Source: Acaryochloris marina S15
GTDB taxonomy: Bacteria; Cyanobacteriota; Cyanobacteriia; Thermosynechococcales; Thermosynechococcaceae
Direction: 5' to 3'
DNA length: 24,000 nt
Assembly (NCBI RefSeq): GCF_018336915.1
Contig: NZ_CP064923.1
Location: 2,380,701 to 2,404,700 of the forward strand
The notes under the pieces are model-generated. The model had not been told where the DNA came from. It worked only from the letters and a program-made list of their open reading frames with translations, and searched no databases. Positions within the stretch are counted from its first letter, which is position 1. Each line of letters begins with the position of its first letter. Shown one piece after another: positions 385 through 24,000 of this stretch. The position numbers and the translations under genes were made by a program.

Positions 385-2343
385 TCAATTGATCTTTACG
401 ATTGAGCCTTTAATGCTATTTACCCCAGAGGCCTGAACAGTCACTAAGGCACCATCAATTTTAGTTTGGGCTGTCCCTTTCATAGCGGCCTGAACCCCTT
501 GAATCGTGACGCCAGAATTGCTCAATTCAATGGATGAGCTACCCACCTTTAGCGTAATCTTGGTCGTTGCTGTTAGGGTAATTTCGCCAGCGTTCAGGCT
601 AATTTTACGAGAACTACCGCTGGTTCCAGATTTAACATTGATATCTCCTGTCGAAATCATATCGATCTTGGCGGAGCCATTATCGTCTAGTAAGACTTTA
701 TGTCCTCCCTTGGATTTTATTTCTAACTTTTTACCTTGATCATCCAACCGGGCATAATGTCCTTCTTTTGTTTTTAATTCGGTGAACTTTTCACTGTCAT
801 TGAGATACAGATGGTGGCCATACACCGTATCTAAGTAAACTCCTTTTTTATTCGCATCTTTATCCTCTTCGACAAATTGGAGGGTATGGCCGGTGCGAGT
901 TTTCACGGTTCGTAGATTGACCTTGCCGTCAACAATGGAACTATCCACCTTCTCTGGGGGACTATCTTTGCCATTCCACACCCCACCCATAATGTAGGGA
1001 CGGTGAATATCACCATGTTCAAACCCCACCAGCACCTCATCATCCACTTCGGGTAAACAGTCAAAACCGCGATTCTTGCCTGCGCCGCTGGCAACCATTC
1101 TGGCCCAGTTACTTTCATGTTCCTCTGTCAGGGTGGGAAATTTCACTCGGACTCGCCCCCACCCTTTAGGGTCTTTGTTATTGGTGACTTTACCGACCAA
1201 TAGGGTTTGCCCTGCCTGCAGCCGTTGAGCAGGGGCCAGCGTTGATAATAAATCTCCTCCCCGCAATCCCCGCACACTGAACTCAGTGGAATAAACCCGA
1301 TCTTGGAATAAATGGCGCGTTTCCGTGATGTAGTATTTACCGCTGTATTTCCCCATATCTTTGAGTTGGACGACTTGCCCCGTTCTCAAGTCGGGATTGC
1401 CTTCAGCCCTGGCATCCGCCACTACAAATTCACCTCCCAACTCATCAATTAAAGCCTGGGCAATGGTATCGGCTTCTTTGGCACTAAAGACTGGTTGATC
1501 CACCACAATCATTTTGGGAGTCGTGGGTTTGCCATTAAAGACGGTGCTTTGCTTCTGGCCGGAGCCATGATCTGTTGAGGTTAGCAATTTCTCGACATTT
1601 TTAGTGGAAACGATGGCTTCCTTCCGTTCATAATCCCAACCCCGCACTTCAACACTTTTCACTTGCTCTGCACTGGTCACCCGCACCCGAAAGCTATGTA
1701 GATCTTTGAGCCAGGTGAGGGAAATATTGGAGTTGGCCTTGGGCTTCCGAAAATTCATCTTGCCGTCTTGAACATAGAGTTCAAACCCATTTCGAGCCGC
1801 TCTCTCCCGCAAAAATTCCATATTGGTTTGGTTCTCTTGAAAAATATAGTCATGGGGAGAACCGCTGTTATCAATGCTGCCAACGGGAATTCCGACTTCT
1901 CCAATCACTTTTTTGACAACATCGGTGTCGGTCATATTTTGGAAGGAGCGATTGTAGCGACCTCGATGGAGTCGATGGGAGATATCGTAACCGCGAATCA
2001 CAATGGGGGCTTGGGAACTGGAGGTGAAATTCGTCTCCATGCCCGTGATTTCTCCATCCAGCACATAGCCTTGATTCTGATCATCAAAGTCCTGAGCTGC
2101 GGTGGTACTGCCGCTAAAGCCAATTTTGATGGTTTTACCGATCTGCAAGAGATCGTCATATTGCCAAGGGGCATCAACGGAGCGTCCAGAAAAGTAGTCA
2201 TTCTTGATTACCAGGACAAACATCCCAGGTAAGTGCAAGCTTTCTTCCACAGAAATCTGGAGGATATCTTCCATCAGCTCATTGGATGCTGTTTTACCAT
2301 CAATCTCTAGAAGTGGCTCGGCAATATAGGTGGTTGCAGGCAT
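385..2343 (-). CDS. vgrG: VgrG / Afp8-like spike protein (gpD-like N-domain, gp5 OB-fold, C-terminal beta-helix)
   Basis: 652-aa ORF. It carries the OB-fold signature GKVTNNKDPKGWGRVRVKFPTL...NWARMVASGAGKNRGFDCLPEVDDEVLVGFEHGDIHRPYIMGGVWNG. The C-terminus has repetitive beta-helix-like sequence (KVLLDDNGSAKIDMISTGDINVKSG...ITLTATTKITLKVGSSSIELSNSGVTIQG). It sits between a tube-initiator gene and a PAAR-like gene. Confidence 0.9.
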   Translation of the reverse strand: MPATTYIAEPLLEIDGKTASNELMEDILQISVEESLHLPGMFVLVIKNDYFSGRSVDAPWQYDDLLQIGKTIKIGFSGSTTAAQDFDDQNQGYVLDGEITGMETNFTSSSQAPIVIRGYDISHRLHRGRYNRSFQNMTDTDVVKKVIGEVGIPVGSIDNSGSPHDYIFQENQTNMEFLRERAARNGFELYVQDGKMNFRKPKANSNISLTWLKDLHSFRVRVTSAEQVKSVEVRGWDYERKEAIVSTKNVEKLLTSTDHGSGQKQSTVFNGKPTTPKMIVVDQPVFSAKEADTIAQALIDELGGEFVVADARAEGNPDLRTGQVVQLKDMGKYSGKYYITETRHLFQDRVYSTEFSVRGLRGGDLLSTLAPAQRLQAGQTLLVGKVTNNKDPKGWGRVRVKFPTLTEEHESNWARMVASGAGKNRGFDCLPEVDDEVLVGFEHGDIHRPYIMGGVWNGKDSPPEKVDSSIVDGKVNLRTVKTRTGHTLQFVEEDKDANKKGVYLDTVYGHHLYLNDSEKFTELKTKEGHYARLDDQGKKLEIKSKGGHKVLLDDNGSAKIDMISTGDINVKSGTSGSSRKISLNAGEITLTATTKITLKVGSSSIELSNSGVTIQGVQAAMKGTAQTKIDGALVTVQASGVNSIKGSIVKIN

Positions 2344-2378: not shown

Positions 2379-2957
2379 TTAGCGACCAAAGGTTGTCCGG
2401 TTGGAGCGACTATCCTGGGAGCGATTGGGGGAGGCAGACTGACTCCCTCCTGCACCTAGGCTGGACTCATCTATTTCCTTCAAGGACATATCGACCCGGG
2501 CTTGGACCGGTGTTCCATCAGGCAAGAATAAGGTGAGTTTGTAAGTAATTTGTTCGACAAAACACCGCAGATATTGCTGGTCTCCCCAAGTGAAGATATA
2601 GATAGGCGGTCGTTTGTTGGCAGCGTCACCACTGTCATCAAAATCCAAGGCTTTAATCAGTTTGCTGACATAGGCATCGATCACGCTTGTACCTTGTTCG
2701 TAGGTATCAAACAATATATTGCTTAAGGACAAAGAGCAGGCTTCCGGGTAGGCAAAGGTGACTTTGGGTAATCCCTTAGCGGTTCGTGCCCCTTGGCTTT
2801 CATTCAGGCGCATTGACTGCTGAAAGACCAATTCAGTGGGGTTGAACATAAATTCAATATCTTTACTCTTGTCCGTGGGTTGGTGGACTAAGGTTGCCTT
2901 GGCTAACTTGCCAGAGGCAACGGCACTGTTATTGCTGCGAGAGCCACTATAGGTCAT
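2379..2957 (-). CDS. CIS tube-initiator protein (Afp7/Pvc7-like N-terminal tube domain), no LysM domain
   Basis: 192-aa ORF. The segments FMFNPTELVFQQS..., LFDTYEQGTSV..., PPIYIFTWGDQQYLRCFVEQITYKLTLFLPDGTPVQARVDMSLKEI match the conserved pattern I recall for proteins usually annotated as 'LysM peptidoglycan-binding / CIS tube protein' upstream of eCIS VgrG genes. The C-terminus here is low complexity (SSLGAGGSQSASPNRSQDSRSNR) rather than a LysM domain. Confidence 0.8.
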   Translation of the reverse strand: MTYSGSRSNNSAVASGKLAKATLVHQPTDKSKDIEFMFNPTELVFQQSMRLNESQGARTAKGLPKVTFAYPEACSLSLSNILFDTYEQGTSVIDAYVSKLIKALDFDDSGDAANKRPPIYIFTWGDQQYLRCFVEQITYKLTLFLPDGTPVQARVDMSLKEIDESSLGAGGSQSASPNRSQDSRSNRTTFGR

Positions 2958-2986: not shown

Positions 2987-5900
2987 TCACCAAGGTAAGC
3001 GACCAGAATGATACCCTCCATGTCTCTCTCGCTCCACTTCCAGCCGCTGTCGGAGGATATGATAGATCTCCCTGGCTAAGATCTCGAAGCTTTGCTCATC
3101 TACTTTGGATGCGGTTGAAGTGTCGGTGTGGGATTGACGCATCACCACTTCTGTCGTTTGTAGAGGGGATGAGACTGGAGGAGGGGCAGCTAGAGCCTTT
3201 TGCAAGGTTTGAGCAGTCCGCCGGACAGATGCTGTTTTTCTTTGGACTCGCTTTTCTGGGTGAATTCCAGTGGGAGTGAGAACTAAATCTGAAGTGTCTT
3301 CAGGTACTGGGGTTTGTGGCTCTGCTTGGCGTTGGATGGCTGATGGCGATTGGACTGTGAATAGGTCTTCGATACTAGACCAGTTTGAGGGTAGTGCTGA
3401 GGGTTGGATTGTGGGTGCGATCGCATTCTCCGTATTCGCCTCAAAATCCTCCTCAGATAGCGCCGTGTCACCAGGGCTTAGATCTAATGGAATATTCGGG
3501 CGTTGCAAATGGCTGAGTTTTTGAGCACGATGCTGACGATTCGACTGGCTGGCAGGCCATAGGCTACTGATTAATTTCGGAGCAACAAAATTGTCGGCAA
3601 TGCTGGAAAGGGGAGAAGGCGCTTGGCCAGTCGCCAATAACTGGGCAACGGTTAGGTCTGGAGAATTCTCCTGTGGTAGTTCTAATTCAGGTGGTTGTGC
3701 TGCTATCTCAATGACTCGGCGTTGGCGCAAATCTGTAGAGTCAGGCTGAGCATTTATCTGATCTATCTTCAGCGCATCGAGAGTACCGCCTGATGGGTCT
3801 TGGTGCTGAATCGTAGGCTTAATGGGGGGCGATGATAATGGCTGGGTTGAAGCAAGTGAAGAGTCCGAACGATCTGCATCCGAAATCTGAATCTTTGAAT
3901 CAGGTGTTACTTGAGGCGGTTCTGCAACTTCAGATTTTTGTACAATGTTGGAGGAGATTTCTGTATGAGCAGGGTCAAACTCTGTTTCTACCTGAGAAGA
4001 GTGGCTCTCTGAATTCTTTTGAAGGATCTGATTCTCGTTGAGATCAGAGGATGGACTTGACGATATATCTTGACTGGGTAAATTAGCATTTTCGATGCTT
4101 CCATCAGGACGTTGAGCTGTAATTTCAATAACCCGACGGTGAAGAGACTCTACCTTGTCCGGTTGAGACTGGATGCTTTCTACTTTTTGAGGTGACGAAT
4201 CAGCAATATTTTCAGTTGGAAGTTGTTGTAAGTCTGGAGTTTTGGTGTCAGAAATACTCGGTTTGGCTAAGGGGGCCGGAGTAGCCTGATCCGAACGGGT
4301 TGTTGGGGTGGGTAGATCTGAACCTATCTTTGTCTTTGAAATTGTACTGGGCTGATGTGCAGACTGGATAATTTCTGATGCGTCTGAAATGTCAGTAAGA
4401 GCTGTATTAGAATCGTGAGACTGCTCAATGCTGGATGCTTGGATGGCAGGCTCTATAGTTGCTTCAGGCAAGTTATTGGGAGGTGATGTATCAACAGTTG
4501 GAGAGATGTGGCTATTTGGTGTAGCTTGCTGTTGTTCGGGCTGGTCTATTGACTGGGAAGGTTGGCTGTCTGGGGTTGGCTGGATTGAAAGAATATCTCT
4601 AGTATCTGGAGGTGATTCTTGGATGCGATCGCAATTATCATACGATTGCCCATTGCTTCCTTTCTGTAGCTGTGCTTCAACCGCGGGTTGGACAACAGAA
4701 ATCTCCACAGCCTGAATCGGAACGGTAGATGTTTGCTTTGATAACAACTTCGATATTTCTGTATTGGGTTCTGTTTGAGCAGAAGTCTTGTCTAGGACAG
4801 GAGTTTCCGGGGCTTTAGCCTGAGCATGTAACGGTTTGCTGGCATCACTGACATCCTTTCTTCGAGCAACTAATGGCTGATCACTATTTGATTGAGTCTC
4901 AATCTTTCGCTGAACGATGTTGCCCGTCTCAGCGATGCTAGCAGTATCACTGGTATTGCTTGGAGCTTGTGGCACATTATTTTCTTGAGATTCAAGAATC
5001 TTGGCATTCTGAGTGGCAGCAATAGCCGTATGGTCGGGCGCGTTTACCTTGAGGTCTGATTCAGATAAGCTTTGGTCTGATACTGTCTCTTTCGGTGGAT
5101 TTACGTTGGCTTGAATCGTTGGGGAAGCACTATTCGATACGTTGTCGTCTTGTTTCGGACTTTGAGATGTGTTGATATTAGTGCTATCCAGATTTTGACT
5201 AGTAGCTTCTGAGAGGTTAACTTCTATAACTACCTTTGGACTCTCTCTGTCGTCACTTTGCTTACTCTTCTTGGAAAGCTGAACCTGTTCTTCACTGAAT
5301 TCCTGGATAGATAAATCTGAGCCAGCGGGAAGCTGTTGTTGAGTTTGGCTAGTGATCGATGGCTGTTCAACCTTAGTTTGAACGGAGACTTCACTAATGG
5401 GAGGACGTTCTGGAGGATGCGATTCTGTTTCTAGAACATGTTGATCCAGAAAGTTTGGGGTTGGAGCGTTAGGTATATCGGGTTGAGATTGCTCCTGTAT
5501 AGTTTGTCGCTGGAGTAGGTTGTCTGGATCGCTGGTATTTGATACTTCTGAGTTTTCATCAGAGTCTGTGGACTCCTGTAACGATAGTTCAGCTTGAGAA
5601 AGTGAATGTGAACTTGGGGGGATAGCAGCTTTGGATTGTTTTATTCGATCATCAGCATTGTCGAGTTGTGATGATTGCTGATGAGTGACGTCCTGACGTT
5701 GAATAGAGTTATTAGTACTTGGAATTGAGGTCGCTTGATTGATCGCCTCACTTTGAGTAATGGAATTCTTCTGAGGGGAAAGTTGAATGGAATCTGAGGT
5801 GGGCAGAGAAGACAGCTCTGTTCGGTGCTGAAGGTTCGGTTCGCTAAAGGAGCTAGAACTTTCAGAATCCAAGGGCTTAGAGTTTATTTCCTCAGCTGGG

Positions 5901-8900
5901 ATAGGCTGCTTTTGAATAATTTCTGCTGTGGATGAGTGTCGTTTAATTGAGCTATCAGCTAAGGGAGAAGGAACCTCAGAGGGCTGTATGGAAGAGTGGG
6001 GTGTGTTTCTTGAAGGCTGGTCAGAGACTATTGGAGCGCGGGTCGAAGCTGCCTCGCTCCCATCGCCCGTGTCATGCTGCCTTTGGACCACTGCTGTATG
6101 TCCAGTGGTCGGTGATGATTGTGTGGGTACGTTTGGTCGTTCTAAAGGGTTGGACTGATGTGTCGATGGCGATGTTTCCTCTTGTTCAGTCAGTAAAGTT
6201 GGTCTGAGAGTTGTATCAGCTCCTGTATTCTCACTAGAAATTTTTGCGGGAGACGACGCTAGGTTCTGCTTGTTTGTCTGGCGTTTTGACTTTGTCTTTT
6301 TAGGCCTTAAGTTTGCCAACTGCTGGACAATGGTTGTACCTATTTTTGAGATATGGGAATTGAGGGAGAGATTGCGACTTTGAGATGATTTTGGTGTTGA
6401 GCCACGGTTTTCTGAACCTCGACTCGATACATCGGTTATTGGCTGTTCTGAGCTTGTTGAGGTTATCTCAGAGCTATCTGGAGTCCTTTGTATAGAGTCC
6501 TCATTGCCTGATGGCAAAGCTGGCTCATTTTGTCCTGAATCTTTTGGTGGCTGAGGAGTCTTTGCTTTATCAACAGAGCTAGCTTGAATAATTGGCTCAG
6601 TTGTGGATTCTGGTGGATTATTAGTGTCTTTTGCTGGGGAAGGAGGGATGGCGGGATTTACATCCGTTTGAACAAGACTTTCTGTTGCCGGGTTAGATGT
6701 AGAGGTTAGCTGTACCGAATCAGTCAATAATGGTTGTTCATTGCCATACACTTTGTCTGAACTAGGCTCAGCAGAGGCCTGAATATTATCTCTATTAAGC
6801 TCAGGAACATCTGCAGATTGTAGGGAGATGTTTTTCTGTGCAACTTCGGATGAGGTCGCTGGTTCAACTGAGCCAGCTTCCTGACATTGTATGGATTGAG
6901 GTAATTGCCTCCTCGAACTTTGTTTTCGGATCGACCGATCAACCCTCTCTTTAATTTCTGAACCTAGATTTGTGATTCTATCTGCGAATTGATTTTGAGT
7001 GGTTTGCCATCCAGGCTGGGCAGCATTGGGTTGTGCTTCTCCTTGGGCAACAAGTGCTGGGTTATGCCCTTCCCGTGGGGAAGATTCCTCAATACTATTT
7101 GGGGTAGGGAAGTCTACTTGCTCAGAAGGAAGAGGGGTCGGTATTGAGGATTGTGATGCTTCAGCTTTTTGTACCGTTGGTAATTCTTGGGTTTGGAGAT
7201 TTTCATCAGCAGTGACATCGGTGAGTCGACCTGACTGATTCTTGGGATGCTCTTGTTCGTTTGAACTAAGTTTAGATTTTGAATGAATAGCTGTATCTGG
7301 AACTGTATTGGGTGAAAATGGCTTAGCCTGAATGTCTGATTGAATAGATGTTACAGCGTTTTTATCTACAGCTTTACCACCACTACCTTGCGATGGCGAT
7401 GTATCTTCACCTACCGATTTTTGAGGCGAGACAGGGTTGATGGTCTGGTCTTTACGATTCTGCTCTGAGTTTTTGGATAAAAACTGCTGCTGTCTTTGGA
7501 GCGGATTGGACTCTTCATTTGGCTGAGGTTCAAGTTGGCGACTAACCGTATCCATGACCTGTTGACTGAAACGCGTCAGTCGTTGCAGGGGTTGAACTGG
7601 GAAGGGTCCCCGCGTCTTTGCTTTTGACCGAGACGAACTAGACTCAGCATTAGAAGTAACATCTGATGATGAGGTAGGTTTTTGCTGATCGGCACTCCCC
7701 TCGGGTGTGGATGATTCAGATTTAATTTGATCCGGTCTAGATGCCTTGGAGTCTGAGGTGGACTCAGTCCCCTCATTAGGACCAGCGATTGAATTAGGAT
7801 GTTTGTCTTGATGAATCGTTGGCTCAGACATTCCAAGAGACTTCGTTTGTAGTGGAGTGGAAGGCGAATGTTCTTGGGGTAAGTCTATAGACTCAGGAAT
7901 TGCTTGAACAGTTGGAGAATTCTCTTCATAGTCAGCATTCTCAGTGTTCACTGACAGCAGTTTTTCTTGGGACAGTTCTTGAGAAGGAGCTTTCTCTACA
8001 GCCTTTGTTCCTGTTTGGACTAGAGATACTTCAGAGGATGATTGTTTTGAGTCAGGGGACGATTTGGCTTGAAGCAATGGAGCGTTTGACAGTGGAGGTG
8101 AATCATTCGTGGATTTCTGTACCTCATTGGCCTTAGCTCTAGATTTACCAACAGGGAGTGATTGAGATGCCTGCTTAAGCTGAATACCAACTTTATTAAT
8201 ATCCTGTTGGGCTCGTTTCCCCATTCGCGAGAGCTGAGCTTGTAAGGGAAGCTTTTTCTGTTTGCTTTTTTTACTTTGTTTCGTTTGTTTTTTTTCAGGT
8301 GCTTTAGTAGATGCCTGAGGAGTTAAATCGTCTGCTCGTTGAATAGCTGTTGACTGTACCGCTTCCCCATCAATTTTTTCTGAAGTGCTGGGTATAGAAG
8401 GACTCTCAACGGATGGGAGGTTGTTACTAGGATTAATGCGGTTAGTCTCTACCTTTGGTATCTGTGGGTGATCCGTAGAAGACTGCTGAACAGCCGAACT
8501 TTCTGAGTTTTGAATAGTTGTTGTCTCTGTGGAGCTATCAGAAGTCTTGGCCGTTGAACTGGGTGGCTCGGAATTCTTAAGCAGTAAAGACTCATCATCT
8601 GGAGATTGTTGAGGAGATGCTGGGGTGACTGTTTGAACAATTGTTGTCTTGATGGGGGTTTCGTTAGTCTTGGGCTTAGGGCTAGGTGTTACAGGAGTTT
8701 CAATTGATGAACCACGATCAATTGAGTGACTTGGGTTAGCTTCTACTTTTGAGTTAGCGAGGGAAGCCTGTGAACGGCTAGTTTGCAGTTCATTTGGAGA
8801 AATAGGAGATGACTGTATAGTCCGCTTAGCAGGTAGATCTGTGGTGATGTCAGTCGCTTGTTCAGTGGGTGGAGTGGTTAGCTCGATGTCTTGAGCAGTC

Positions 8901-10252
8901 GCCTCAAGTGAAGTTTGGATTGGAACGGGTTGGGACTCGGGAGGTTGAACGTTAGATACTGGTTTTTCCTGAACAGGTTTAGAAGAAATAACTGGTTTTT
9001 GACTAGACAGTGGAGATGCTTTTGGGGCAGCTTCTTCTTTACTTTGGACAACCTGGGTGTTTTGAGTAGATAGAGCTAATGAATGGTCAGGGGCAGAAGA
9101 GACTTTTGGGAGGTTTGGTTGAATGGGGGTAGAGACTTCTGATGCTTCAGTTGGAGATGAATCAGAATTTGTAGAATTGGCAAGAGGTGAAGGGTCTAGG
9201 CTAGAAGATGTTACGTCTGAGTCTAGAGGAGTGGCCTGTTCTTGAGACTTAGGGAGACTCTCTTGGATTGCGGAGGGCTCGGAATTTGCCTTGATTTCTG
9301 GTAAATCCTGGCGTTTAGTCTGAAGGGGCGGCACATCTGTTGGGTGGGAAGAAGCACTCACCTCAGGAGATATCGCTTTGGATGAGGGATGTGCGATTGG
9401 TTTCTGGGGCGTTTGTTCAGGCTGGGGGTTGAACTCAGTACTGGGTTTGCCGGCAACCCCCTCTGATGATGTCTGAAGTCCCGGTGTGTTGTCTATTGGG
9501 GAGGAAGCAGGGGAATGTGCTGACTCTTGAGCATGGGATTCATGGGATGGCGGGCTAAGTTTAGAAGTCCTGACCAGCTTAGGTTGAAGTATTGTGTCAG
9601 GACTGCTTTGATCTTGAGCAATCTGTTTTTCTGATTCAACCTGCTCAGAATGAGGGACTAAAGACTGGGTAGAGATCTGATACTGCACAGGCTGAATAGA
9701 AGGGGCTGCAGCTTGGGTCGGGGCAGCATTAAGGACTGCATTAGTCTCACTGGATGACGATGGTTCTACTTCTGGTGCATTGCGATGGATCTTGTTAGCA
9801 TTGCTGGGTGCTGTTGGCGGCTCCTGATGGGTTGATAATTGCTCTAATTTAGGTTGCAGATTCTCGGCAGGTGCTTTCGGAGCAAGAGTGCTAGGTTGCG
9901 CTCCAGGAAACTGGGTTACGACGGATTGAGAGATGTTGGAAGCCATTGACGACAGCTCGTCAATGGCTTCCGTTGGCACCTGGGCAGCAAAATGGGTATT
10001 TAGAAGATTTGTCCGAGCTGTTTCGGTAGGCAGGGTGGCATCCAAGCTTATTAGGGATACAGTGCCCAAGGGAGATAGGGTATGGGGTTGGAGAAAGGAT
10101 TGTCCTAGAACAGGAGGAGGTAGCAGTGGATGTTGCAGGCCGAGCGAGTCTGAGGAAGGAATCTCTTCCGGCTGGGATTGATGACCTTGACCTGAATTGA
10201 CATCCATAAACAAACGTTTTGGGTTAGTTACTGGGGTAGAATCCTCCGGCAT
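2987..10252 (-). CDS. Giant 2421-aa low-complexity (Ser/Pro/Gln/Thr/Glu-rich) protein in the tape-measure (Afp14-like) position
   Basis: The 7.26-kb frame is uninterrupted, which cannot arise by chance at this GC content. It lies between the tube and tube-initiator genes and overlaps the tube stop by 29 nt (an alternative ATG at 10207 would leave a 16-nt gap). The C-terminus FEILAREIYHILRQRLEVERERHGGYHSGRLPW (2990-3088) is the only clearly helical, conserved-looking segment. Duplicated peptide blocks differ mainly at synonymous positions, which supports real translation. The functional call rests on position and motif only. Confidence 0.8.
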   Translation of the reverse strand: MPEDSTPVTNPKRLFMDVNSGQGHQSQPEEIPSSDSLGLQHPLLPPPVLGQSFLQPHTLSPLGTVSLISLDATLPTETARTNLLNTHFAAQVPTEAIDELSSMASNISQSVVTQFPGAQPSTLAPKAPAENLQPKLEQLSTHQEPPTAPSNANKIHRNAPEVEPSSSSETNAVLNAAPTQAAAPSIQPVQYQISTQSLVPHSEQVESEKQIAQDQSSPDTILQPKLVRTSKLSPPSHESHAQESAHSPASSPIDNTPGLQTSSEGVAGKPSTEFNPQPEQTPQKPIAHPSSKAISPEVSASSHPTDVPPLQTKRQDLPEIKANSEPSAIQESLPKSQEQATPLDSDVTSSSLDPSPLANSTNSDSSPTEASEVSTPIQPNLPKVSSAPDHSLALSTQNTQVVQSKEEAAPKASPLSSQKPVISSKPVQEKPVSNVQPPESQPVPIQTSLEATAQDIELTTPPTEQATDITTDLPAKRTIQSSPISPNELQTSRSQASLANSKVEANPSHSIDRGSSIETPVTPSPKPKTNETPIKTTIVQTVTPASPQQSPDDESLLLKNSEPPSSTAKTSDSSTETTTIQNSESSAVQQSSTDHPQIPKVETNRINPSNNLPSVESPSIPSTSEKIDGEAVQSTAIQRADDLTPQASTKAPEKKQTKQSKKSKQKKLPLQAQLSRMGKRAQQDINKVGIQLKQASQSLPVGKSRAKANEVQKSTNDSPPLSNAPLLQAKSSPDSKQSSSEVSLVQTGTKAVEKAPSQELSQEKLLSVNTENADYEENSPTVQAIPESIDLPQEHSPSTPLQTKSLGMSEPTIHQDKHPNSIAGPNEGTESTSDSKASRPDQIKSESSTPEGSADQQKPTSSSDVTSNAESSSSRSKAKTRGPFPVQPLQRLTRFSQQVMDTVSRQLEPQPNEESNPLQRQQQFLSKNSEQNRKDQTINPVSPQKSVGEDTSPSQGSGGKAVDKNAVTSIQSDIQAKPFSPNTVPDTAIHSKSKLSSNEQEHPKNQSGRLTDVTADENLQTQELPTVQKAEASQSSIPTPLPSEQVDFPTPNSIEESSPREGHNPALVAQGEAQPNAAQPGWQTTQNQFADRITNLGSEIKERVDRSIRKQSSRRQLPQSIQCQEAGSVEPATSSEVAQKNISLQSADVPELNRDNIQASAEPSSDKVYGNEQPLLTDSVQLTSTSNPATESLVQTDVNPAIPPSPAKDTNNPPESTTEPIIQASSVDKAKTPQPPKDSGQNEPALPSGNEDSIQRTPDSSEITSTSSEQPITDVSSRGSENRGSTPKSSQSRNLSLNSHISKIGTTIVQQLANLRPKKTKSKRQTNKQNLASSPAKISSENTGADTTLRPTLLTEQEETSPSTHQSNPLERPNVPTQSSPTTGHTAVVQRQHDTGDGSEAASTRAPIVSDQPSRNTPHSSIQPSEVPSPLADSSIKRHSSTAEIIQKQPIPAEEINSKPLDSESSSSFSEPNLQHRTELSSLPTSDSIQLSPQKNSITQSEAINQATSIPSTNNSIQRQDVTHQQSSQLDNADDRIKQSKAAIPPSSHSLSQAELSLQESTDSDENSEVSNTSDPDNLLQRQTIQEQSQPDIPNAPTPNFLDQHVLETESHPPERPPISEVSVQTKVEQPSITSQTQQQLPAGSDLSIQEFSEEQVQLSKKSKQSDDRESPKVVIEVNLSEATSQNLDSTNINTSQSPKQDDNVSNSASPTIQANVNPPKETVSDQSLSESDLKVNAPDHTAIAATQNAKILESQENNVPQAPSNTSDTASIAETGNIVQRKIETQSNSDQPLVARRKDVSDASKPLHAQAKAPETPVLDKTSAQTEPNTEISKLLSKQTSTVPIQAVEISVVQPAVEAQLQKGSNGQSYDNCDRIQESPPDTRDILSIQPTPDSQPSQSIDQPEQQQATPNSHISPTVDTSPPNNLPEATIEPAIQASSIEQSHDSNTALTDISDASEIIQSAHQPSTISKTKIGSDLPTPTTRSDQATPAPLAKPSISDTKTPDLQQLPTENIADSSPQKVESIQSQPDKVESLHRRVIEITAQRPDGSIENANLPSQDISSSPSSDLNENQILQKNSESHSSQVETEFDPAHTEISSNIVQKSEVAEPPQVTPDSKIQISDADRSDSSLASTQPLSSPPIKPTIQHQDPSGGTLDALKIDQINAQPDSTDLRQRRVIEIAAQPPELELPQENSPDLTVAQLLATGQAPSPLSSIADNFVAPKLISSLWPASQSNRQHRAQKLSHLQRPNIPLDLSPGDTALSEEDFEANTENAIAPTIQPSALPSNWSSIEDLFTVQSPSAIQRQAEPQTPVPEDTSDLVLTPTGIHPEKRVQRKTASVRRTAQTLQKALAAPPPVSSPLQTTEVVMRQSHTDTSTASKVDEQSFEILAREIYHILRQRLEVERERHGGYHSGRLPW
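3417..3424. repeat. HIP1 octamer GCGATCGC
   Basis: Perfect palindromic octamer read directly from the sequence, inside the giant ORF. Confidence 0.95.
4625..4632. repeat. HIP1 octamer GCGATCGC
   Basis: Perfect octamer read directly from the sequence, inside the giant ORF. Confidence 0.95.
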
Positions 10253-10796
10253 CTCTACCTTTCAAGAAGGTAGCCCCACCGCCTGCGTTACTGCTGGGCT
10301 GCAGGTTGGCAACGACCTTTAGACCTTCGTATGCCAAGGTGAGTTCTTCAATGGCAACGGTAGATGTATCCGCTTGGAGAGCTGGAGCTTGCCAAGCCAC
10401 GGGGACGGCACCAATTAAGGTCCAGGTTTGAATGGTTTCTCCTGCTTGATTGAACAAGAGGATATTGATGTTGCGACGCTGGGGATTCACATTACGATCG
10501 GTCGGTTCTAACTGGGTGAGCATACGACTGGCCCAGCCCCAAAACACTAGATCATTCGTAATCCCTCGCTTGAGGGTGACATCAGAGAATTCAGTTTGAC
10601 CGAGTATGATTCGCTGCTGGTTGTTGACGCCGCCTTCAAAGTAGGTGTCATGCTTGATTTTGGCGCTTAACCCTGAACATTCGCTAAAGCAAGCACTGAT
10701 ATAGCTCTTTTCTTGGATTTCGACATAGAAGCGATTGGCAGTGACGTAGTTAAGGTTATGGGTTTCGCTGTTGCTAGCCACTAGTGCCGCCCCCAT
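10224..10796 (-). CDS. Contractile-tail inner tube protein (T4 gp19 / Afp1-Afp5 family)
   Basis: 190-aa ORF. NRFYVEI...FSECSGLSAKIKHDTYFEGGVNN...FSDVTLKRGITNDLVFWGWA is the classic gp19-like 'phage tail protein' pattern (F-x-V-E-I, SGL, EGG-N, TLKRG). It has an extra Gly-rich tail of about 30 aa. Confidence 0.9.
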   Translation of the reverse strand: MGAALVASNSETHNLNYVTANRFYVEIQEKSYISACFSECSGLSAKIKHDTYFEGGVNNQQRIILGQTEFSDVTLKRGITNDLVFWGWASRMLTQLEPTDRNVNPQRRNINILLFNQAGETIQTWTLIGAVPVAWQAPALQADTSTVAIEELTLAYEGLKVVANLQPSSNAGGGATFLKGRDAGGFYPSN

Positions 10797-11007
10797 AGTT
10801 CCGCTCGCGCTGATTTTGCAGGTCGTTTTGCATCAGTTCATAGATGCGATCGCATAATCGAGATTGCGCCAGTGGATCTTGCAAAATCTGGGCTGCTAAT
10901 CTGAAAACCCTGTCTCGATCAGATAGATCAGACAGTCCAGGCGAGCACCCCGCTGAAGCTGAATGGATTCTCTGGTTTTCTCCTAGAGACTGATCCCCTT
11001 GGCTCAT
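10774..11007 (-). CDS. Small CIS-associated protein (77 aa from ATG 11007; 102 aa if the 11082 start is used) carrying the same C-terminal motif as the giant ORF
   Basis: It is the first ORF of the minus-strand operon and overlaps the tube start by 23 nt. Its C-terminus RLCDRIYELMQNDLQNQRERNYGGGTSG aligns without gaps to REIYHILRQRLEVERERHGGY of the giant ORF. That match argues it is genuinely coding. Confidence 0.6.
   Translation of the reverse strand: MSQGDQSLGENQRIHSASAGCSPGLSDLSDRDRVFRLAAQILQDPLAQSRLCDRIYELMQNDLQNQRERNYGGGTSG
10846..10853. repeat. HIP1 octamer GCGATCGC
   Basis: Perfect octamer inside the small CIS ORF, covering codons C-D-R of CDRIY. Confidence 0.95.
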
Positions 11008-11783
11008 ATGGCAAGTACCTAGTAACAACTCTCCCCGCCTGCCCCACCCCGCTTCAGATAAGGGATGAGGGACCAGCCTCACTCTATGGGCCAGAAAGAG
11101 CGACCGATAGTAGCCAAAGGTCTAACTGCACCAAGCATATGGTTCTACATAGGCGCAAGCCTTCCATGAACAAAAGCTGTGATGGGTAAAAAGGTCTATT
11201 AGAGAATGGTCCTCTTCTCCACTTTGAGTAGAGGCTAAATGAAGCCGTGAACTTTTCTAAGATTTTCCATCAGTTTTATCTTGCTTCATCATTTGATTAA
11301 CAAAAGCGAAGATTTTAGTAAATATACTCAGGAATCCATAGGGTATGAAGAAACTAAATCTCAGATGAAGCTTTACCTATCGCACCTAAATGGATAGGCA
11401 AAAGTAGAAAAATTTGCTGACTGCATTCACTTTTTTTCAACCGTAAGGAGGGTCTGATATCAGCTGAGACCTCTAAAAGTGGCTTAACTTAATAATTTTT
11501 TACAGGATTAAATTTCTTCTGACAAATAAAACTTACTGGGCATCAATAATCGAGAATCGTTTTCATGTTGATGTCTTAAAAGTATGCCCAGAAAGCTTTT
11601 TGAGCTATTTGACTGTCCGTAACTTTTGCCGAAATACTCCAAACTTTTCTATCCATAAACTCGTAATTACCAAAAAAAACCTGAAATCCAGAGATTATCA
11701 AGGTTCTGACGATCTATATTTAGCGAATAGCATTTAGAATAATCCATTAAATCGACGTGGTTGCGACATTTCAGCCAGTTAGA

Positions 11784-18771: not shown

Positions 18772-21207
18772 TTGACTCTCTTCAAGATCTTTTACCTTTC
18801 AGATAGTTTATTGTTTGCTAATTTTTTAAGTCAGCTGGAGCAGTTCCCTACAGCGATTATTCCTGATATAGCTATTGCCTTTACATTTGGAGGAATGGCT
18901 GTTCTCTTGGGCTATGTGGCCTTTCGCCATCAGCCAGTGACCTATCCCCAACTTGTTTCTCTATTTATTGCTTTATTGGCTACTTGTAGCCTCAATTCGA
19001 TTCTGGATATAGCCTCTCTTTATATTCCCATTGCTGGTGTTCAAGCAGGAATCAAGCTACTCACCTTGGCCATTGCGATCTTCGCTAGTAGAGAATTCCT
19101 AGCAGACAGCACAAAAATTTTGTCTCAAAATACTACTCCCACCTTAGTGGATGAAAATCGGGTAGTGAAGCAGGAGCTTGAAAATTGTCGACAACTAGAA
19201 GTAGAACGATATAAAAGCCAGCAAATTTTAAATGATGCCTTCGAATATGCCTTAATTGGTAAGGCTATTCTCACCCCTGATGGAGATTGGATCAGAGTCA
19301 ATTCAGCCCTCTGTGAACTATTGGGTTACACAGAGGCCGAGATATTACAGACAAACTTCAAAAGTATGACCCATCCTGAGGATGTAGCCCTTGAACAACA
19401 CTATTGTGATCAACTGCTATCTGGAGAAGTGTTGGCCTGTCGCTTTGACAAGCGGTATTACCACAAGCAAGGACATATTGTTTGGGGCAGGTTGAGTATT
19501 TCTCTGGTCAGAACGCCTGAGGATAAACCCCTATATTTTATTGCTCAAATTGATAATATCTCTGACCGCAAACAGGCTGAAGCAGACTTGAATTTGGTGA
19601 TTGGGCAGCTAAAACTGGCCATTGAAGATCGCTCTACAGAGCTAGATACAGCTTACTCAACCTTGAAGAAATCTGCTGCTCAGTATCAGGATCTTTATGA
19701 CAATGCCCCAGACATGTATCTGTCCGTCGATGCGGATAGCACCAAGATTTTGCGTTGCAACCAAACCCTAATGAAAGAACTGGGATACAGCTATTCAGAA
19801 ATAGTGGGTTGCTCTGTCATCGATCTTTATCATCCTGATTTTCGGACTGAAGCACAGAATGCCTTCCAAACCTTTTTGGAAACAGGTGAAGCTAGGAATG
19901 TCTACCTAGTCGTACAGCGCAAAGATGGGACGACCATGGATGTCAGCCTCAATGCCCAGGGGTTTCGCGATCAGCAAGGCAAGGTTAGGTACAGTCGCTC
20001 AAGCTGGCGAGATATTTCGACGCGCAAACGTTTGGAGAACCAACTGAAGCGAATGAATGCTGAATTGGAAGAGCGGGTTGAAAATCGAACTTTAGCACTA
20101 CAAATTGCCATTCAATCCTTAAAAGAGAGTGAGTCCCGTTTGGAACTGGCATTAGAGGCCTCTGGAGATGGTTGGTGGGACTGGAACATGCTCACGGATG
20201 AAACAAGCTGGAGTATACAGTTCTATCAAATGCTGGGATATGAGATGGAAGAATTGCCTTCCTCGTTTCAAACTTGGCAAAGCTGGACTCATCCTGATGA
20301 TTTACCTAGAATGATGGCTTTGCTGGAAGAGCATTTACAAGATCAGTCCATCCCCTATGTTTTTGACTATCGAACGCGAACGAAATCAGAGCAATGGAAA
20401 TGGATTTCTGTCATGGGCAAAGTCGTAGATTGCAATGATCAAGGGGAACCTCTCCGTATGGTTGGGATGCTCCATGATATTAGTGATCGCAAACAGGCAG
20501 AGCAGGAACTGCGGAGAATAAATACGGAGCTCGTTCGCTCTAACCAAGAGTTGGGTCATTTTGCCTATGTTGCCTCCCACGATTTGCAGGAACCGTTACG
20601 AAAAATAAGGAGTTTTACTGAGTTATTGGCCGAACGCTATCAGGGGCGACTAGATGAGACAGCGGATCGCTATATTCGCTACATCACCGATGGGGCTGCC
20701 CGCATGCAAGGGTTGATAGATGATCTACTCAGTTATTCTCGAGTCGGACGAGCTGAACTAAAGGTGAATCCCACTGCATTATCGTCCCTAGTGAAAGAGG
20801 TGCAATCTGATTTAGAAAAGGTTATTGAACAACGCCAGGTCGAGATGGTCATAGATTCGTTGCCAACCGTTGCTGTTGATCCGGTGCAAATGAGGCAGGT
20901 GTTCCAAAATCTGATTTCTAATGCCATCAAGTATTGCCAAGCGGATCGTCCGAGTATTCACATTCGAGCCACTCAAAATAAAGAGTTTTGGGCTATTTCA
21001 GTCCAAGATAATGGAATTGGCATTAGCCCCCAGTTTGCTGAGCGAGTATTTATCATTTTCCAGCGCTTACACCACCGGGGAGAATATTCGGGGACAGGGA
21101 TTGGATTGGCCATCTGTAAAAAAATAATTGAGCGGCATGGAGGGGAAATTTGGGTGGACTCGGAAGAAGGTAAAGGAGCGATCTTTTCTTTCACTCTGCC
21201 CCGATGA
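18772..21207 (+). CDS. Membrane-anchored sensor histidine kinase (TM region, 3 PAS domains, HisKA, HATPase_c)
   Basis: TTG start. The N-terminal approximately 110 aa are hydrophobic. Three PAS/PAC units each end in a DISDRKQAE-like segment. The H-box is FAYVASHDLQEPLRKI, and the N/G boxes are NLISNAIKY, DNGIGI and GTGIGLAICKKIIERHGG. Confidence 0.9.
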   Translation: MTLFKIFYLSDSLLFANFLSQLEQFPTAIIPDIAIAFTFGGMAVLLGYVAFRHQPVTYPQLVSLFIALLATCSLNSILDIASLYIPIAGVQAGIKLLTLAIAIFASREFLADSTKILSQNTTPTLVDENRVVKQELENCRQLEVERYKSQQILNDAFEYALIGKAILTPDGDWIRVNSALCELLGYTEAEILQTNFKSMTHPEDVALEQHYCDQLLSGEVLACRFDKRYYHKQGHIVWGRLSISLVRTPEDKPLYFIAQIDNISDRKQAEADLNLVIGQLKLAIEDRSTELDTAYSTLKKSAAQYQDLYDNAPDMYLSVDADSTKILRCNQTLMKELGYSYSEIVGCSVIDLYHPDFRTEAQNAFQTFLETGEARNVYLVVQRKDGTTMDVSLNAQGFRDQQGKVRYSRSSWRDISTRKRLENQLKRMNAELEERVENRTLALQIAIQSLKESESRLELALEASGDGWWDWNMLTDETSWSIQFYQMLGYEMEELPSSFQTWQSWTHPDDLPRMMALLEEHLQDQSIPYVFDYRTRTKSEQWKWISVMGKVVDCNDQGEPLRMVGMLHDISDRKQAEQELRRINTELVRSNQELGHFAYVASHDLQEPLRKIRSFTELLAERYQGRLDETADRYIRYITDGAARMQGLIDDLLSYSRVGRAELKVNPTALSSLVKEVQSDLEKVIEQRQVEMVIDSLPTVAVDPVQMRQVFQNLISNAIKYCQADRPSIHIRATQNKEFWAISVQDNGIGISPQFAERVFIIFQRLHHRGEYSGTGIGLAICKKIIERHGGEIWVDSEEGKGAIFSFTLPR

Positions 21208-21367
21208 GATTTTTTTGGATGCAATTCTCGAATAATATATTCGCCAGATAATGGCCATAATCATTCGAATTTAATTTTATATGGACAAGAAATTAAAATC
21301 CCTGCAATTTTCATGGATTTGTTTATGATGTTTAACAGTTGGGTGTATTTTGACTTTGGGGCAATGA

Positions 21368-21799
21368 ATGATTGAGATATTGTTGGTAGAAGATGATGAA
21401 GGGGATATAGAACTCACTTTGGAAGCCTTTAATCGCTCAAAAGTTGCCCTCAACGTTACTGTTGTCAGAGATGGTATGGAGGCGATGGCCTACCTTCAGC
21501 AAGAAGGGACCTATGAGGCGGCAAAAACTCCCGACTTGATGTTGCTAGACCTCAACTTACCCCGTAAAGATGGTCGAGAAGTGTTGACCGATATGCAAGA
21601 GAGTAGCCGTCTCAGGCAGATACCTGTGGTTGTGCTAACGACATCAGATGCGGATGAAGATATTTTGAAGAGCTACAAAATTGGGGCTAATGCTTATGTC
21701 ACGAAACCTGTGGGTTTAAAGGGACTAGTTAAGGTGGTTAATTTGCTAGAAGAATTTTGGTTTACGATTGTCAAGTTGCCTCCCCATGAAATGAGCTAG
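21368..21799 (+). CDS. Single-domain response regulator (Rcp1/CheY-like receiver)
   Basis: 143 aa with VEDDEGD, the phospho-acceptor context LMLLDLNLPRKDG, VVVLTTS and YVTKP. Confidence 0.9.
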   Translation: MIEILLVEDDEGDIELTLEAFNRSKVALNVTVVRDGMEAMAYLQQEGTYEAAKTPDLMLLDLNLPRKDGREVLTDMQESSRLRQIPVVVLTTSDADEDILKSYKIGANAYVTKPVGLKGLVKVVNLLEEFWFTIVKLPPHEMS

Positions 21800-21832
21800 A
21801 CAACCGACGGGTCCTAGAAGAGCTAGCATTCC

Positions 21833-22237
21833 TCATTCCTTGGACTTGGCTTTTATCACCCGATCGACCACTGTCATTAGCTCTGGCAAATCGATAGGTT
21901 TTTTCAGGTATTCATCTGCGCCTACGGTTTTGGCAATTTCTAGGACTGAGAAACCTGGATCATGAGAACGTCCACTAATAGCAATCAGCCATGGCTTGCT
22001 TTCTAGGGCGAGCATGTTGATTTTGGAAATCAGCATGATCCCTCCCCTAGGACTTTCTTGATTGTTTTCTTGGATAAAAATATCAATTAAAGCAATGTCT
22101 AGATATGCTTCATAAATTTTGGACATGGCCACATTGATATTAGCGGTGTATTCAACCTGGTGCCCTTGATCACCAAGGGTTTTTTGCCAGGACTCCGCCA
22201 AGATTGTATCGTCTTCGAATATAAGAATATTAGCCAA
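21833..22237 (-). CDS. Single-domain response regulator receiver
   Basis: 134 aa with FEDD, IALIDIF, LIAISG and LKKP. It starts 14 nt after the stop of the phytochrome-type kinase gene, on the same strand. Confidence 0.85.
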   Translation of the reverse strand: MANILIFEDDTILAESWQKTLGDQGHQVEYTANINVAMSKIYEAYLDIALIDIFIQENNQESPRGGIMLISKINMLALESKPWLIAISGRSHDPGFSVLEIAKTVGADEYLKKPIDLPELMTVVDRVIKAKSKE

Positions 22238-22251
22238 TGGTATAGCTCCCT

Positions 22252-24000
22252 CTAGGCTAAGAGTTGATGGATGGTGAGGTTTAATTGCTCCCCGTCAATG
22301 GGCTTTTTGAGCATGGGCACAATGGCTAAGTCTTCTGGAAGCGTGAATTTGGAATTGTAGCCCGTCGTAAACATGAAGGGGATTCGTCGCCGGATTAGTT
22401 CTCTGGCGATGTCAAAGCTATTTTCTTCCTTGAGGTTGATGTCTAAGATACCCAAGATGTATGTTTCCTGGGCTAAAAGTTTAATGGCCTGTTTGACTCT
22501 GGGGGCTGTATCGATGTCGTTAAATCCCAAAGACTCTAGAAGATTCTCCATTTCGAGGGCCAGTAACATGTTGTCTTCAACGATCAGAACATGACCAGGG
22601 GCAAGGTCTGGTTCTTCCTCGCTCTGGAAGGCGGGCATTGGCGTAGAAGACACTTCCGGTTGGTCATCTTGGAAGAGGATCAGGTGAGCAGGCAGCCAAA
22701 AATTGACTTGAACCCCTGTTCTGGGGAAGCGCAGCGTGGCCTCTCCTTCAAACTCAAACGGGATCGCCCGCTCGATTAACGTCCGTCCAAACCCTTTACG
22801 TTTAGGTGGAAAGACGGTCGGTCCATCAGATTCCTTCCAATAAATGGCCAGTCCTCCATCCTGTTCTTTCCAACGGACATCAACTTTACCTGCAGAAACG
22901 GATAAGGCTCCATACTTGGCAGAATTAGTAATCAGTTCATGAATGACTAGGGCAAACATGGGGACAAAGTTGGCTTTTAGACCTGCTTCTGGACCCGAGA
23001 GACTGACTTGATGTTCTGATTCCCCCAGGTAAGGACGGAGTTCTGTCATTACCAAGTTTTGGAGACTGGGCCACTCCAGACCATGTCCAGCCACCAAATC
23101 ATGGGCATGGGCTAGGGCTGCAATGCGGCGATCTAAGAGCAGGGTATATTCTTCAATGGAAGTAGTGGAGTGACGGGTTTGGCGAGAGATGGATCGGATT
23201 AAGGCCAGAATATTTTTGACCCGGTGGTTGAGTTCCGCAATGAGGAGATCTTGTTGTCGCCGTTGTCTTAACCATTCTTGTTGCTGAACCTCTCCTTGAC
23301 TGATGGCTAACTGCATTAGCCCAGTGCGGAGTTCTAGGGCGACTTCTGTTTCGAGGACTGACCAAGGTTTGCATTGGCCTGCTATCTTTTCTCGATACTC
23401 TGCAAAGGAGGTGCGAGGGCGTAATCGGGGTCCATTAGCCCCTTCGACAATCTCTTTTTCTGGCGATCCTGCCCATCGGACTTCATAGATCATTTCATGG
23501 CGAAAGAAAATGACGAAGACGTCGTCGCTGGGGGCTATGCCTAGACAGAGAGCACCTGCGGTTTTACCCAATTGAGTGGTACTAAGGCGGTTGAGTTGGG
23601 ATAGGTTTTCCAGGGGGATTAGATCAGGGCAGGGATGGGTTTGAACCTGATGGACTAGTTCTCTGATGATGCCATGAGTGGGAACGTCTCCATAGGTTTG
23701 AATTTCTTGCTTGGCAATAACCGCCAGACCCTGGGCAGAGAGCATGGAACAGAGTTGTTCTCCTAAGGCTTGTACGGTTTGCGTAAACCGGCCGCTACTC
23801 GTCAATTTTTGGACGAATTGGGAGATGGCTGAAGTGGTGCGTTTACGGGTGTTGAACCGCTCTTCTTCCAGGACCAACTGGAATTTGAGGGAAAAAAGTT
23901 GGCCAAATAGATCGCAGGTGGATCGGTAATCAGGGGATAGTAATTTGACACTCTTGTGATGGAAGGCAAACAGCCCCCATAGCTGTCTCCGAACAATAAT
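22252..24000 (-). CDS. Phytochrome-type photoreceptor: (GAF end)-PHY-HWE histidine kinase-receiver hybrid, 5' end beyond window
   Basis: The frame stays open from 23877 to 24000. My translation of 24000-23878 is IIVRRQLWGLFAFHHKSVKLLSPDYRSTCDLFGQLFSLKFQ, which is the LWGL-x-x-x-HH...R-x-x-C-(E/D)-x-(F/L) end of a phytochrome GAF domain. The PHY end is FFRHEMIYEVRWAGSPEK. The HWE/HisKA_2 H-box is ELNHRVKNILALIRSI. HELITNSAKYG and WKESDGP are present. The C-terminal REC has VEDN, ILDINL, FTTGY and LKKP. Confidence 0.85.
   Translation of the reverse strand: MIVRRQLWGLFAFHHKSVKLLSPDYRSTCDLFGQLFSLKFQLVLEEERFNTRKRTTSAISQFVQKLTSSGRFTQTVQALGEQLCSMLSAQGLAVIAKQEIQTYGDVPTHGIIRELVHQVQTHPCPDLIPLENLSQLNRLSTTQLGKTAGALCLGIAPSDDVFVIFFRHEMIYEVRWAGSPEKEIVEGANGPRLRPRTSFAEYREKIAGQCKPWSVLETEVALELRTGLMQLAISQGEVQQQEWLRQRRQQDLLIAELNHRVKNILALIRSISRQTRHSTTSIEEYTLLLDRRIAALAHAHDLVAGHGLEWPSLQNLVMTELRPYLGESEHQVSLSGPEAGLKANFVPMFALVIHELITNSAKYGALSVSAGKVDVRWKEQDGGLAIYWKESDGPTVFPPKRKGFGRTLIERAIPFEFEGEATLRFPRTGVQVNFWLPAHLILFQDDQPEVSSTPMPAFQSEEEPDLAPGHVLIVEDNMLLALEMENLLESLGFNDIDTAPRVKQAIKLLAQETYILGILDINLKEENSFDIARELIRRRIPFMFTTGYNSKFTLPEDLAIVPMLKKPIDGEQLNLTIHQLLA

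Follow-up and report, generated by a model that had tools for sequence, protein, structure and literature searches.

Paired C-terminal helices on a small and a giant protein of an Acaryochloris contractile injection system: a possible tape-measure-like protein and its proposed co-assembling partner

Why should two proteins of one operon, the one of 77 and the other of 2421 amino acids, end in the same motif? The question is raised by a stretch of 24,000 nucleotides from Acaryochloris marina S15 (contig NZ_CP064923.1, positions 2,380,701 to 2,404,700; hereafter the window), which holds a five-gene operon on the minus strand in the order small open reading frame (ORF), tube protein, giant ORF, Cis7-like protein and VgrG spike. 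The loci of relatives go on with PAAR, gp25, Baseplate_J and Tail_P2_I genes, which identifies the operon as a hub/baseplate module that belongs to a contractile injection system (CIS). Here, we propose that the large protein is a tape-measure-like protein docked at the hub by its C-terminal helix, and that the small protein is a paralogue of that helix which co-assembles with it. As a whole, we hold this model to be about evenly poised between right and wrong.

The two motif carriers and the gene between them are laid out as follows:

10774 to 11007, minus strand: small ORF, 77 amino acids, first gene of the hub/baseplate operon, with its ATG at 11007.
10879 to 10941, minus strand: the small protein's first helix, spanning residues 23-43 (...RVFRLAAQILQD), as predicted by AlphaFold2.
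10792 to 10875, minus strand: the small protein's motif helix, spanning residues 45-72 (P-LAQSRLCDRIYELMQNDLQNQRERNY), as predicted by AlphaFold2.
10224 to 10796, minus strand: gp19-type tube protein, Cis5/Cis1b-like, between both motif carriers (PF06841, E 2.4e-36).
2987 to 10252, minus strand: giant ORF, 2421 amino acids, with no Pfam or NCBIfam match.
3020 to 3097, minus strand: the giant protein's motif helix, spanning residues 2386-2411 (EQSFEILAREIYHILRQRLEVERERH), as predicted by AlphaFold2.
2990 to 3019, minus strand: non-helical terminal tail GGYHSGRLPW of the giant protein (consensus G-x-x-Y-S-G-R-L-P-W, found in the large class only).

Is the likeness of the two tails real? An initial annotation, made from the letters of the window, had described in both an I-Y, nine residues, [EQ]RER, one or two residues and a GG, at nucleotides 10777-10860 and 2990-3085. 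On translation, the small ORF ends in LCDRIYELMQNDLQNQRERNYGGGTSG and the giant ORF in LAREIYHILRQRLEVERERHGGYHSGRLPW, each followed by the stop codon; the described pattern runs through both tails without a gap, and its positions fall within them. Local alignment of the two 40-residue tails scores 44, as against 18.3 +/- 3.7 for shuffled sequences (0 of 5000 reach 44), and when set against the tails of the other 57 ORFs of the window the pair ranks first, with a runner-up at 29. When the alignments of the small and the large class are compared with each other by hhalign, the probability is 92% (E 5.4e-7, 35 columns), and class-specific hidden Markov models (HMMs) match the opposite class down to 1e-4 and 1e-3, with best background matches of 0.35 and 0.69. 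The motif is an amphipathic helix of about 26 residues, L..L...[VI]Y.L[ILM]...L...RER.G..[YF], followed by a short conserved tail. The two classes are homologous yet distinct and are old paralogues kept side by side, not alternative forms such as a short scaffold and its giant variant, as one suggestion had it.

Beyond the window, the small ORF behaves as a gene. A 96% identical protein of 77 amino acids is annotated in Acaryochloris. Among five close homologues the C-terminal half is almost invariant, and both the synteny and the two tails are kept in relatives; the initial annotation had named conservation of the motif in orthologous small ORFs as a test, and it is this C-terminal half that is kept. 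A segment LAAKVLxDP is likewise conserved, as is Pro45, which parts the first helix from the motif helix. Over 59 distinct nucleotide versions of the small-ORF motif region, divergence at the three codon positions is 0.38, 0.23 and 0.56, the pattern expected of coding sequence. When 5.8 billion proteins were searched with a profile, 339 small-protein homologues came up at E ≤ 1. The 120 homologues listed are all of the small family, with 44-81 amino acids and no Pfam domain among them; the named sources are cyanobacterial, and all source-named entries are called “hypothetical protein”. The small family is an uncharacterised one of several hundred members annotated as hypothetical. The small ORF of the window has no match in Pfam, NCBIfam or PHROG, and searches of the PDB with the tails and profiles of both classes gave noise only.

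Could the resemblance nonetheless be due to chance or composition, or the small ORF be the decaying, untranslated remnant of a 3' end that was once duplicated? In favour of this, the motif is not long and abounds in R, E and Q, and the cross-matches of the class-specific HMMs are weak. Set against this are the shuffles and the hhalign E-value given above, along with small ORFs that are intact in 67 of 81 loci from many genera, with class-specific invariant residues and the coding-type codon-position pattern, and that the NCBI and JGI pipelines call independently as genes. We find it scarcely credible that chance or decay accounts for the motif.

Both helices are predicted with high confidence. 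With an alignment of 85 sequences, AlphaFold2 models the small protein as a disordered N-terminus followed by helices at residues 23-43 and 45-72, with a mean predicted local distance difference test (pLDDT) score of 93, 96 and 88 in the 10-residue blocks of 41-70, and of about 88-96 over residues 31-70. For the last 142 residues of the giant protein, modelled without an alignment, it gives one confident helix (fragment residues 107-132) and then ten non-helical residues; the block means are 74, 96 and 86 over residues 101-130, and the remainder is of low confidence. The shared motif is, as the initial annotation proposed, a conserved C-terminal helical module on two very differently sized proteins of a CIS hub/tube-initiator operon.

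How fixed is this arrangement? A tube-anchored scan, seeded with an 18-sequence tube alignment, gave 80 cyanobacterial loci, and an HMM built from the tails was run over their 10,128 ORFs (10-kb flanks, about 1.2 Mb of CIS neighbourhoods). There were 83 cyanobacterial sources in all, with 81 evaluable upstream of the tube gene, 55 downstream and 53 on both sides. The motif HMM matches ORFs at two positions only, directly upstream and directly downstream of the tube gene, and in every case on the same strand as that gene. An upstream carrier (44-115 amino acids, mostly 48-60) occurs in 67 of the 81 evaluable sources, and a downstream carrier (106-2645 amino acids) in 49 of 55. Where both sides can be evaluated, 35 of 53 sources have both carriers, 12 the large one only, 4 the small one only and 2 neither. 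In thirteen large proteins the motif occurs twice in tandem near the C-terminus, about 60-70 residues apart (L028, L029, L036, L037, L042, L047, L049, L050, L053, L059, L074, L081 and L020); in the inspected examples both copies are of the large-class charge type.

These fixed positions bear on the suggestion that the motif is a general packaging handle, by which any protein ending in it would enter the tube lumen. The module does occur on three kinds of carrier (small proteins, long proteins and, as described below, tube paralogues), and the thirteen long proteins with two copies would also suit such a handle. However, the HMM scan of related loci, which the initial annotation had proposed as a way to look for further proteins of this kind, found no carrier outside the two syntenic positions among the 10,128 cyanobacterial ORFs. 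No toxin-like or DUF4157 protein carries the motif, the DUF4157 genes of pHBOR03 being negative, all 120 matches listed from the profile search are of the small family, and the known loading signals of extracellular CIS (eCIS) are N-terminal. A general handle is, in our view, very unlikely. Two strict back-translated motif patterns gave zero matches in viral contigs, which is a weak negative.

What, then, distinguishes the two classes? With the class profiles numbered from the near-invariant Tyr as position 0, both have L-8, L-5, [VI]-1, Y0, L+2, [MIL]+3, L+7, R+11, E+12 and R+13. At nearly every polar position (-7, -3, -2, +4 to +6 and +8), the charges are opposite between the classes:

Position -7: R in the small class, E in the large class.
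Position -3: D in the small class, R in the large class.
Position -2: R in the small class, E in the large class.
Positions +4 to +6: (L/Q) E D in the small class, R Q R in the large class.
Position +8: R in the small class, E in the large class.

Position +6 is a heptad “a” position aligned with the hydrophobic stripe; all but one of 61 small proteins have D or E there, whereas R is found in 40 of the 44 large proteins.

The initial annotation had allowed for either competition or co-occupation of one site by the two proteins. In a competition, the small protein would be a decoy or regulator on the hub site of the large protein, controlling whether, or how many, giant proteins are installed. 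The hydrophobic core and the R-E-R-x-G-x-x-[YF] cap common to both classes could serve such a purpose, and the small ORF is optional, 12 of the 53 fully evaluable loci having the large protein alone. It is mostly missing where the large protein is short: in large-only loci the large protein has 106-272 amino acids in 12 of 13 cases (L006, L008-L013, L015, L021, L044, L076 and L081), whereas in loci with the small ORF it has 232-2645, with a median of 967 (Mann-Whitney p 8.5e-6, with phylogeny ignored). The small ORF is dispensable in some clades. The correlation with length, however, draws on few independent lineages: at least seven of these loci come from one clade of Laspinema/Phormidium relatives. 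Moreover, with seven polar positions inverted in charge, the two helices would turn opposite surfaces toward any common pocket, and the small ORF leads a structural operon and overlaps the start of the tube gene, which is atypical of a regulator. Since the core is common to both classes and the charges of the polar face are inverted, we favour pairing over competition for one site, which we regard as improbable. The model that we prefer is one of co-occupation, with both proteins plausibly at a hub or tube site.

What might the large protein be? Both ends of the giant ORF are conserved, the N-terminus with LGLQHPLLPPPxLGQ, and the body between them is disordered and rich in Ser, Pro, Gln and Thr (Pro 10.7% and Ser 15.8% of the protein, Pro+Gly 9-17% in each 200-residue block). 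Homologues of 106-2645 amino acids, a length range of about 25-fold, hold the same position; only the N-terminal ~40 and C-terminal ~100 residues are conserved among them, and the disordered middle varies from 100 to 2,600 residues. With the tube gene on one side and the tube initiator/hub genes on the other, the large gene is in the tape-measure position of P2-like tails, diffocin and tailocins, where the genes run in the order tube, (chaperone), tape measure, tube initiator, hub. In full clusters a homologue of PHROG 508, “tail assembly chaperone”, is found upstream (L024, E 2.4e-6; Streptomyces L089, E 2.9e-4). The giant protein of the window and homologues of 270, 605, 677, 1020 and 2531 amino acids have no match in Pfam, NCBIfam or PHROG; a database search with the last 142 residues of the giant gave zero matches, orthologues included, the latter having been recovered by way of the small ORF and the tube-anchored scan; and neither CIS_TMP nor any other tape-measure family matches the large protein. 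We read the large protein as the lumen protein of this lineage, putatively docked by its C-terminal helix, and chose the label “tape-measure-like” because the position and the two ends fit, while the disordered body and the lack of a family match do not. Its position and anatomy are observed, and we infer a ruler function. From the interpretation offered in the initial annotation, the conserved helical module stands, and the tape-measure position of the giant gene had gone unrecognised there.

A further feature of the giant ORF is the short motif [ILV]Q[RK], which occurs 18 times, as against 3.4 +/- 1.8 in shuffles (0 of 1000). [IV]QR repeats are also found in long proteins of non-cyanobacterial loci (L083 11771-13363, L086 1265-3298 and L090 21800-23227), including the tandem MPIQRAAQEEEEVSR, and in the N-terminal region of a Halogeometricum DUF4157 protein, ahead of its conserved core. 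[IV]QR may be a common recognition element, be it for the lumen of the tube or for the ATPase.

Does the pairing extend beyond cyanobacteria? In other lineages, three more distant tube paralogues (P0070, P0146 and P0138) themselves end in the motif, which is joined to the tube part by a flexible acidic linker. The gene order in L083 is Pvc16_N, sheath, tube, chaperone-like protein, tube with motif, tube and long [IV]QR-repeat protein; in L086 (70% G+C) it is tube with motif, tube, a Pro/Ala-rich protein of 677 amino acids that ends in LDQLARQVYPLIKRMLAVERERRIGR, Cis7-LysM and VgrG. As these layouts recur outside cyanobacteria, the pairing of an upstream carrier with a long protein is old, and, going by gene order, the cyanobacterial small ORF corresponds to the tail of the upstream tube paralogue. 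A docking or assembly role at the tube base fits, given that the motif is fused to tube paralogues. The Deinococcus and Halogeometricum loci have no motif. We considered the N-terminal extensions of close tube homologues as fused small ORFs and rejected them, the motif match being only E ~4. These extensions, of 60-170 amino acids and coiled-coil-like or low-complexity (P0006, P0010, P0012, P0013, P0014 and P0017), may be gene-calling fusions or another solution to the same role.

One option on which these fusions bear is that the small protein is a chaperone similar to gpG/gpE, which would pair with the giant's C-terminal helix before docking, keep the giant soluble and leave the finished particle. 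Its helix is complementary in charge to that of the large class, the small ORF is present mainly where the large protein is long, and in L024 it comes after the PHROG 508 homologue, where Streptomyces has DUF6760. However, the small ORF resembles no chaperone family, and other lineages have the same helix covalently fused to a tube paralogue, a structural protein. In phages, moreover, the chaperone genes immediately precede the tape measure, whereas in the present operon the tube gene intervenes. A chaperone role seems to us doubtful.

We return to the favoured model of a docked large protein with a co-assembling small one. The motif module belongs to the hub/tube-initiator part of a lineage-II-type CIS, with a spike nearest to that of the subtype IId Streptomyces CIS. 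At the docking site that we infer, the spike/Cis7/Cis5 end, the large protein's C-terminal helix would be held as in phage and tailocin tape measures, and its disordered body, whether of 100 or of 2,600 residues, would run up the tube lumen. The small protein, as an old paralogue of the large helix, would be made together with the Cis5-like tube protein; most likely its helix packs with the large helix in a mixed bundle, or stacks beside it, within the hub cavity. Its role there would be that of an accessory nucleator or a plug, in analogy to Cis6, and not that of a competitor. The helix probably anchors both proteins at the tube base, and we read the small protein as an accessory partner or plug analogue.

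Several observations weigh against this model. The tape measures described to date are helical, whereas the body of the large protein is Pro-rich and disordered. No clear inversion of charge is seen in L086 between the motif copy fused to the tube protein and that of the long protein. The small ORF is undetected in thirteen loci that have the large protein (L007 being cut off upstream and L008 apparently frameshifted), and as most large proteins without a small ORF keep R at +6, the pairing of small with large cannot be obligatory. DUF5908, the family to which the Afp6 plug is assigned, matches none of 29 small ORFs at E ≤ 1, and the small-protein profile, searched against the PDB for plug chains such as 7B5H, 7AEB and 9QGL, finds no CIS chain at E ≤ 10. 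Finally, Afp6 and the C-terminus of Afp14 in the pADAP Afp cluster have no motif in common, so that the paired motif is not a general rule of CIS.

Might the scheme reach as far as Streptomyces? Streptomyces plasmid clusters (L088 6312-10457 and L089 6985-10701) have, in this order, a PHROG 508 homologue with a zinc-ribbon, a protein of 52 amino acids (DUF6760 in L089) and a Pro-rich ORF of 1020-1381 amino acids; the genes for the Cis1b tube, Cis7 and VgrG come after all three. The tail of this long ORF, ...LARRLxxPxxRLLRxELRxxRxRxGR, matches the motif HMM at E 0.1-6 and is not significant with a second-iteration HMM either; it is a lead only. In S. clavuligerus, where this ORF has 1381 codons, the listed annotation gives only its final 71 codons as a gene. 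We regard the long Pro-rich ORF as a candidate for the tape measure whose gene has been reported absent in the Streptomyces CIS (PMC12237407).

A broader joint reading would have lineage-II CIS, Streptomyces included, use a non-helical, disordered tape-measure or lumen tether with a paired-helix plug and [IV]QR recognition. Its C-terminal helix, Y..L...L...RER, would co-assemble with a charge-complementary paralogue, either separate or fused to the tube, into a mixed helical plug; this plug would bridge the three-fold spike and the six-fold tube initiator and nucleate assembly; and the [IV]QR repeats, also N-terminal in DUF4157 proteins, would be recognition elements for the lumen or the ATPase. 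We put this forward tentatively and think it unlikely to hold in full.

The operon is completed by two further genes:

2379 to 2957, minus strand: Cis7-like tube initiator (PF19266 CIS_tube, E 1.4e-18).
385 to 2343, minus strand: VgrG-like spike, Cis8 (NF033848, E 2e-108).

Among solved spikes, the closest to the VgrG of the window is that of the Streptomyces coelicolor CIS of subtype IId (PDB 9GTR chain q, E 1.5e-48). The tube protein is about 97% identical to its counterpart in Acaryochloris marina MBIC11017 and also matches TIGR02241, with a higher score for CIS5_fam than for CIS1_fam; its relatives have 187 amino acids. The mechanically called ORF of the small gene begins at a GTG at 11082, and we used the ATG at 11007 because the annotated protein of a close relative has 77 amino acids. 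The mechanical starts of the tube and giant ORFs are probably too early as well: going by relatives, the tube gene may start at the GTG at 10781, overlapping the stop of the small ORF, and the giant ORF has its probable start at Met16 (nucleotide 10207), just past the tube stop. In the window the start codon of the tube gene lies within the final part of the small ORF, and in many loci the two genes overlap or abut, an arrangement that would couple their translation.

Upstream of the operon lie an AT-rich spacer of 800 nucleotides and then an HU gene. No sheath, Cis1, cap or ATPase gene is found within the window, and the Acaryochloris hub/baseplate module stands alone beside HU and housekeeping genes. 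In Thainema (L024), the hub module forms one contiguous stretch with a Pvc16_N gene, a sheath gene and three tube genes, and in Trichormus, Laspinema and Pseudanabaena (L062, L013 and L091) a protein of about 800 amino acids with kinase-like and periplasmic-binding-like domains is encoded upstream. Elsewhere in the window, a few kb from the CIS module, are a superfamily-IV holin-like membrane protein (PF04020, 15907-16266, plus strand) and a cluster of genes for a PAS histidine kinase, a response regulator and a phytochrome-HWE kinase (18772-23877).

How does the module compare with known systems? The large gene occupies the same slot as the genes of established tape measures (diffocin CD1366, with its helix at residues 795-817; phages 80alpha and T5; the position of P2 gpT), and in diffocin the tape measure's C-terminal helix has been resolved docking on the spike (PMC10996793). 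Like these, the large protein has a short helix at its extreme C-terminus, conserved ends, a variable length and a chaperone homologue upstream in complete clusters. Unlike them, its body is Ser/Pro/Gln/Thr-rich and predicted to be disordered, not coiled coil, it matches no family, and in the cyanobacterial system there is a second, separately encoded copy of the helix. With Afp14/Alg14, the tape measure of eCIS (annotated “contractile injection system tape measure protein”), it would have in common a presumed role in the lumen and attachment to the baseplate by the C-terminus. Afp14 differs in having no sequence similarity to the large protein, a gene placed after afp13 and a Trp/Pro-rich C-terminus unrelated to Afp6.

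For the small protein, the nearest analogue is the plug Cis6/Afp6/Alg6/Pvc6, a protein of about 55 amino acids whose C-terminal helices form a trimer that plugs the spike cavity and which is essential in lineage I (PMC8894135; PMC8894136; PMC12546770). Both are small, the present family being typically of 48-60 amino acids, with a disordered N-terminus and one C-terminal amphipathic helix of about 28 residues, and both have genes adjoining cis5 in the hub module. In contrast to the plug gene, the small gene lies upstream of the cis5-like gene in 67 of 67 loci, the interval between cis5 and cis7 holding the large gene instead, and the small protein has no N-terminal beta-strand; Afp6 scores about 0 bits with the motif HMMs. 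As for the tail assembly chaperones gpG/gpE, the small ORF has no PHROG match, whereas neighbouring zinc-ribbon proteins match PHROG 508. The eCIS cargo signals that have been defined by experiment are disordered and lie at the N-terminus (preprint 10.64898/2026.05.27.728243), often placed before DUF4157, whereas the present motif is C-terminal and helical and is absent from DUF4157 proteins.

The closest solved spike belongs to the Streptomyces CIS (subtype IId, PDB 9GTP/9GTR), in which a long Pro-rich ORF, a chaperone homologue and DUF6760 are also present and which differs in that the long gene precedes the Cis1b tube gene. Its particles are uniform, with a length of 268 nm (PMC6899500; PMC10066040; PMC12237407), for which the fit of 0.2156 nm per residue for eCIS tape measures would predict a protein of about 1,200-1,300 amino acids. 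Lineage-II CIS, which are common in cyanobacteria and actinobacteria, have been described as having no recognisable genes for Afp6, the plug, and Afp14, the tape measure (PMC6899500), and the paired-helix module provides testable candidates for both. If the 26-residue helix is the anchor, engineered lumen proteins could be tethered through it, or the length of the particles could be adjusted. We found no family model, solved structure or paper describing the motif or the small protein. The docking of a tape measure by its C-terminus and the helical plug are known from other systems, and what this locus adds to them is a pair of charge-inverted, paralogous helices together with a disordered, tape-measure-like carrier.

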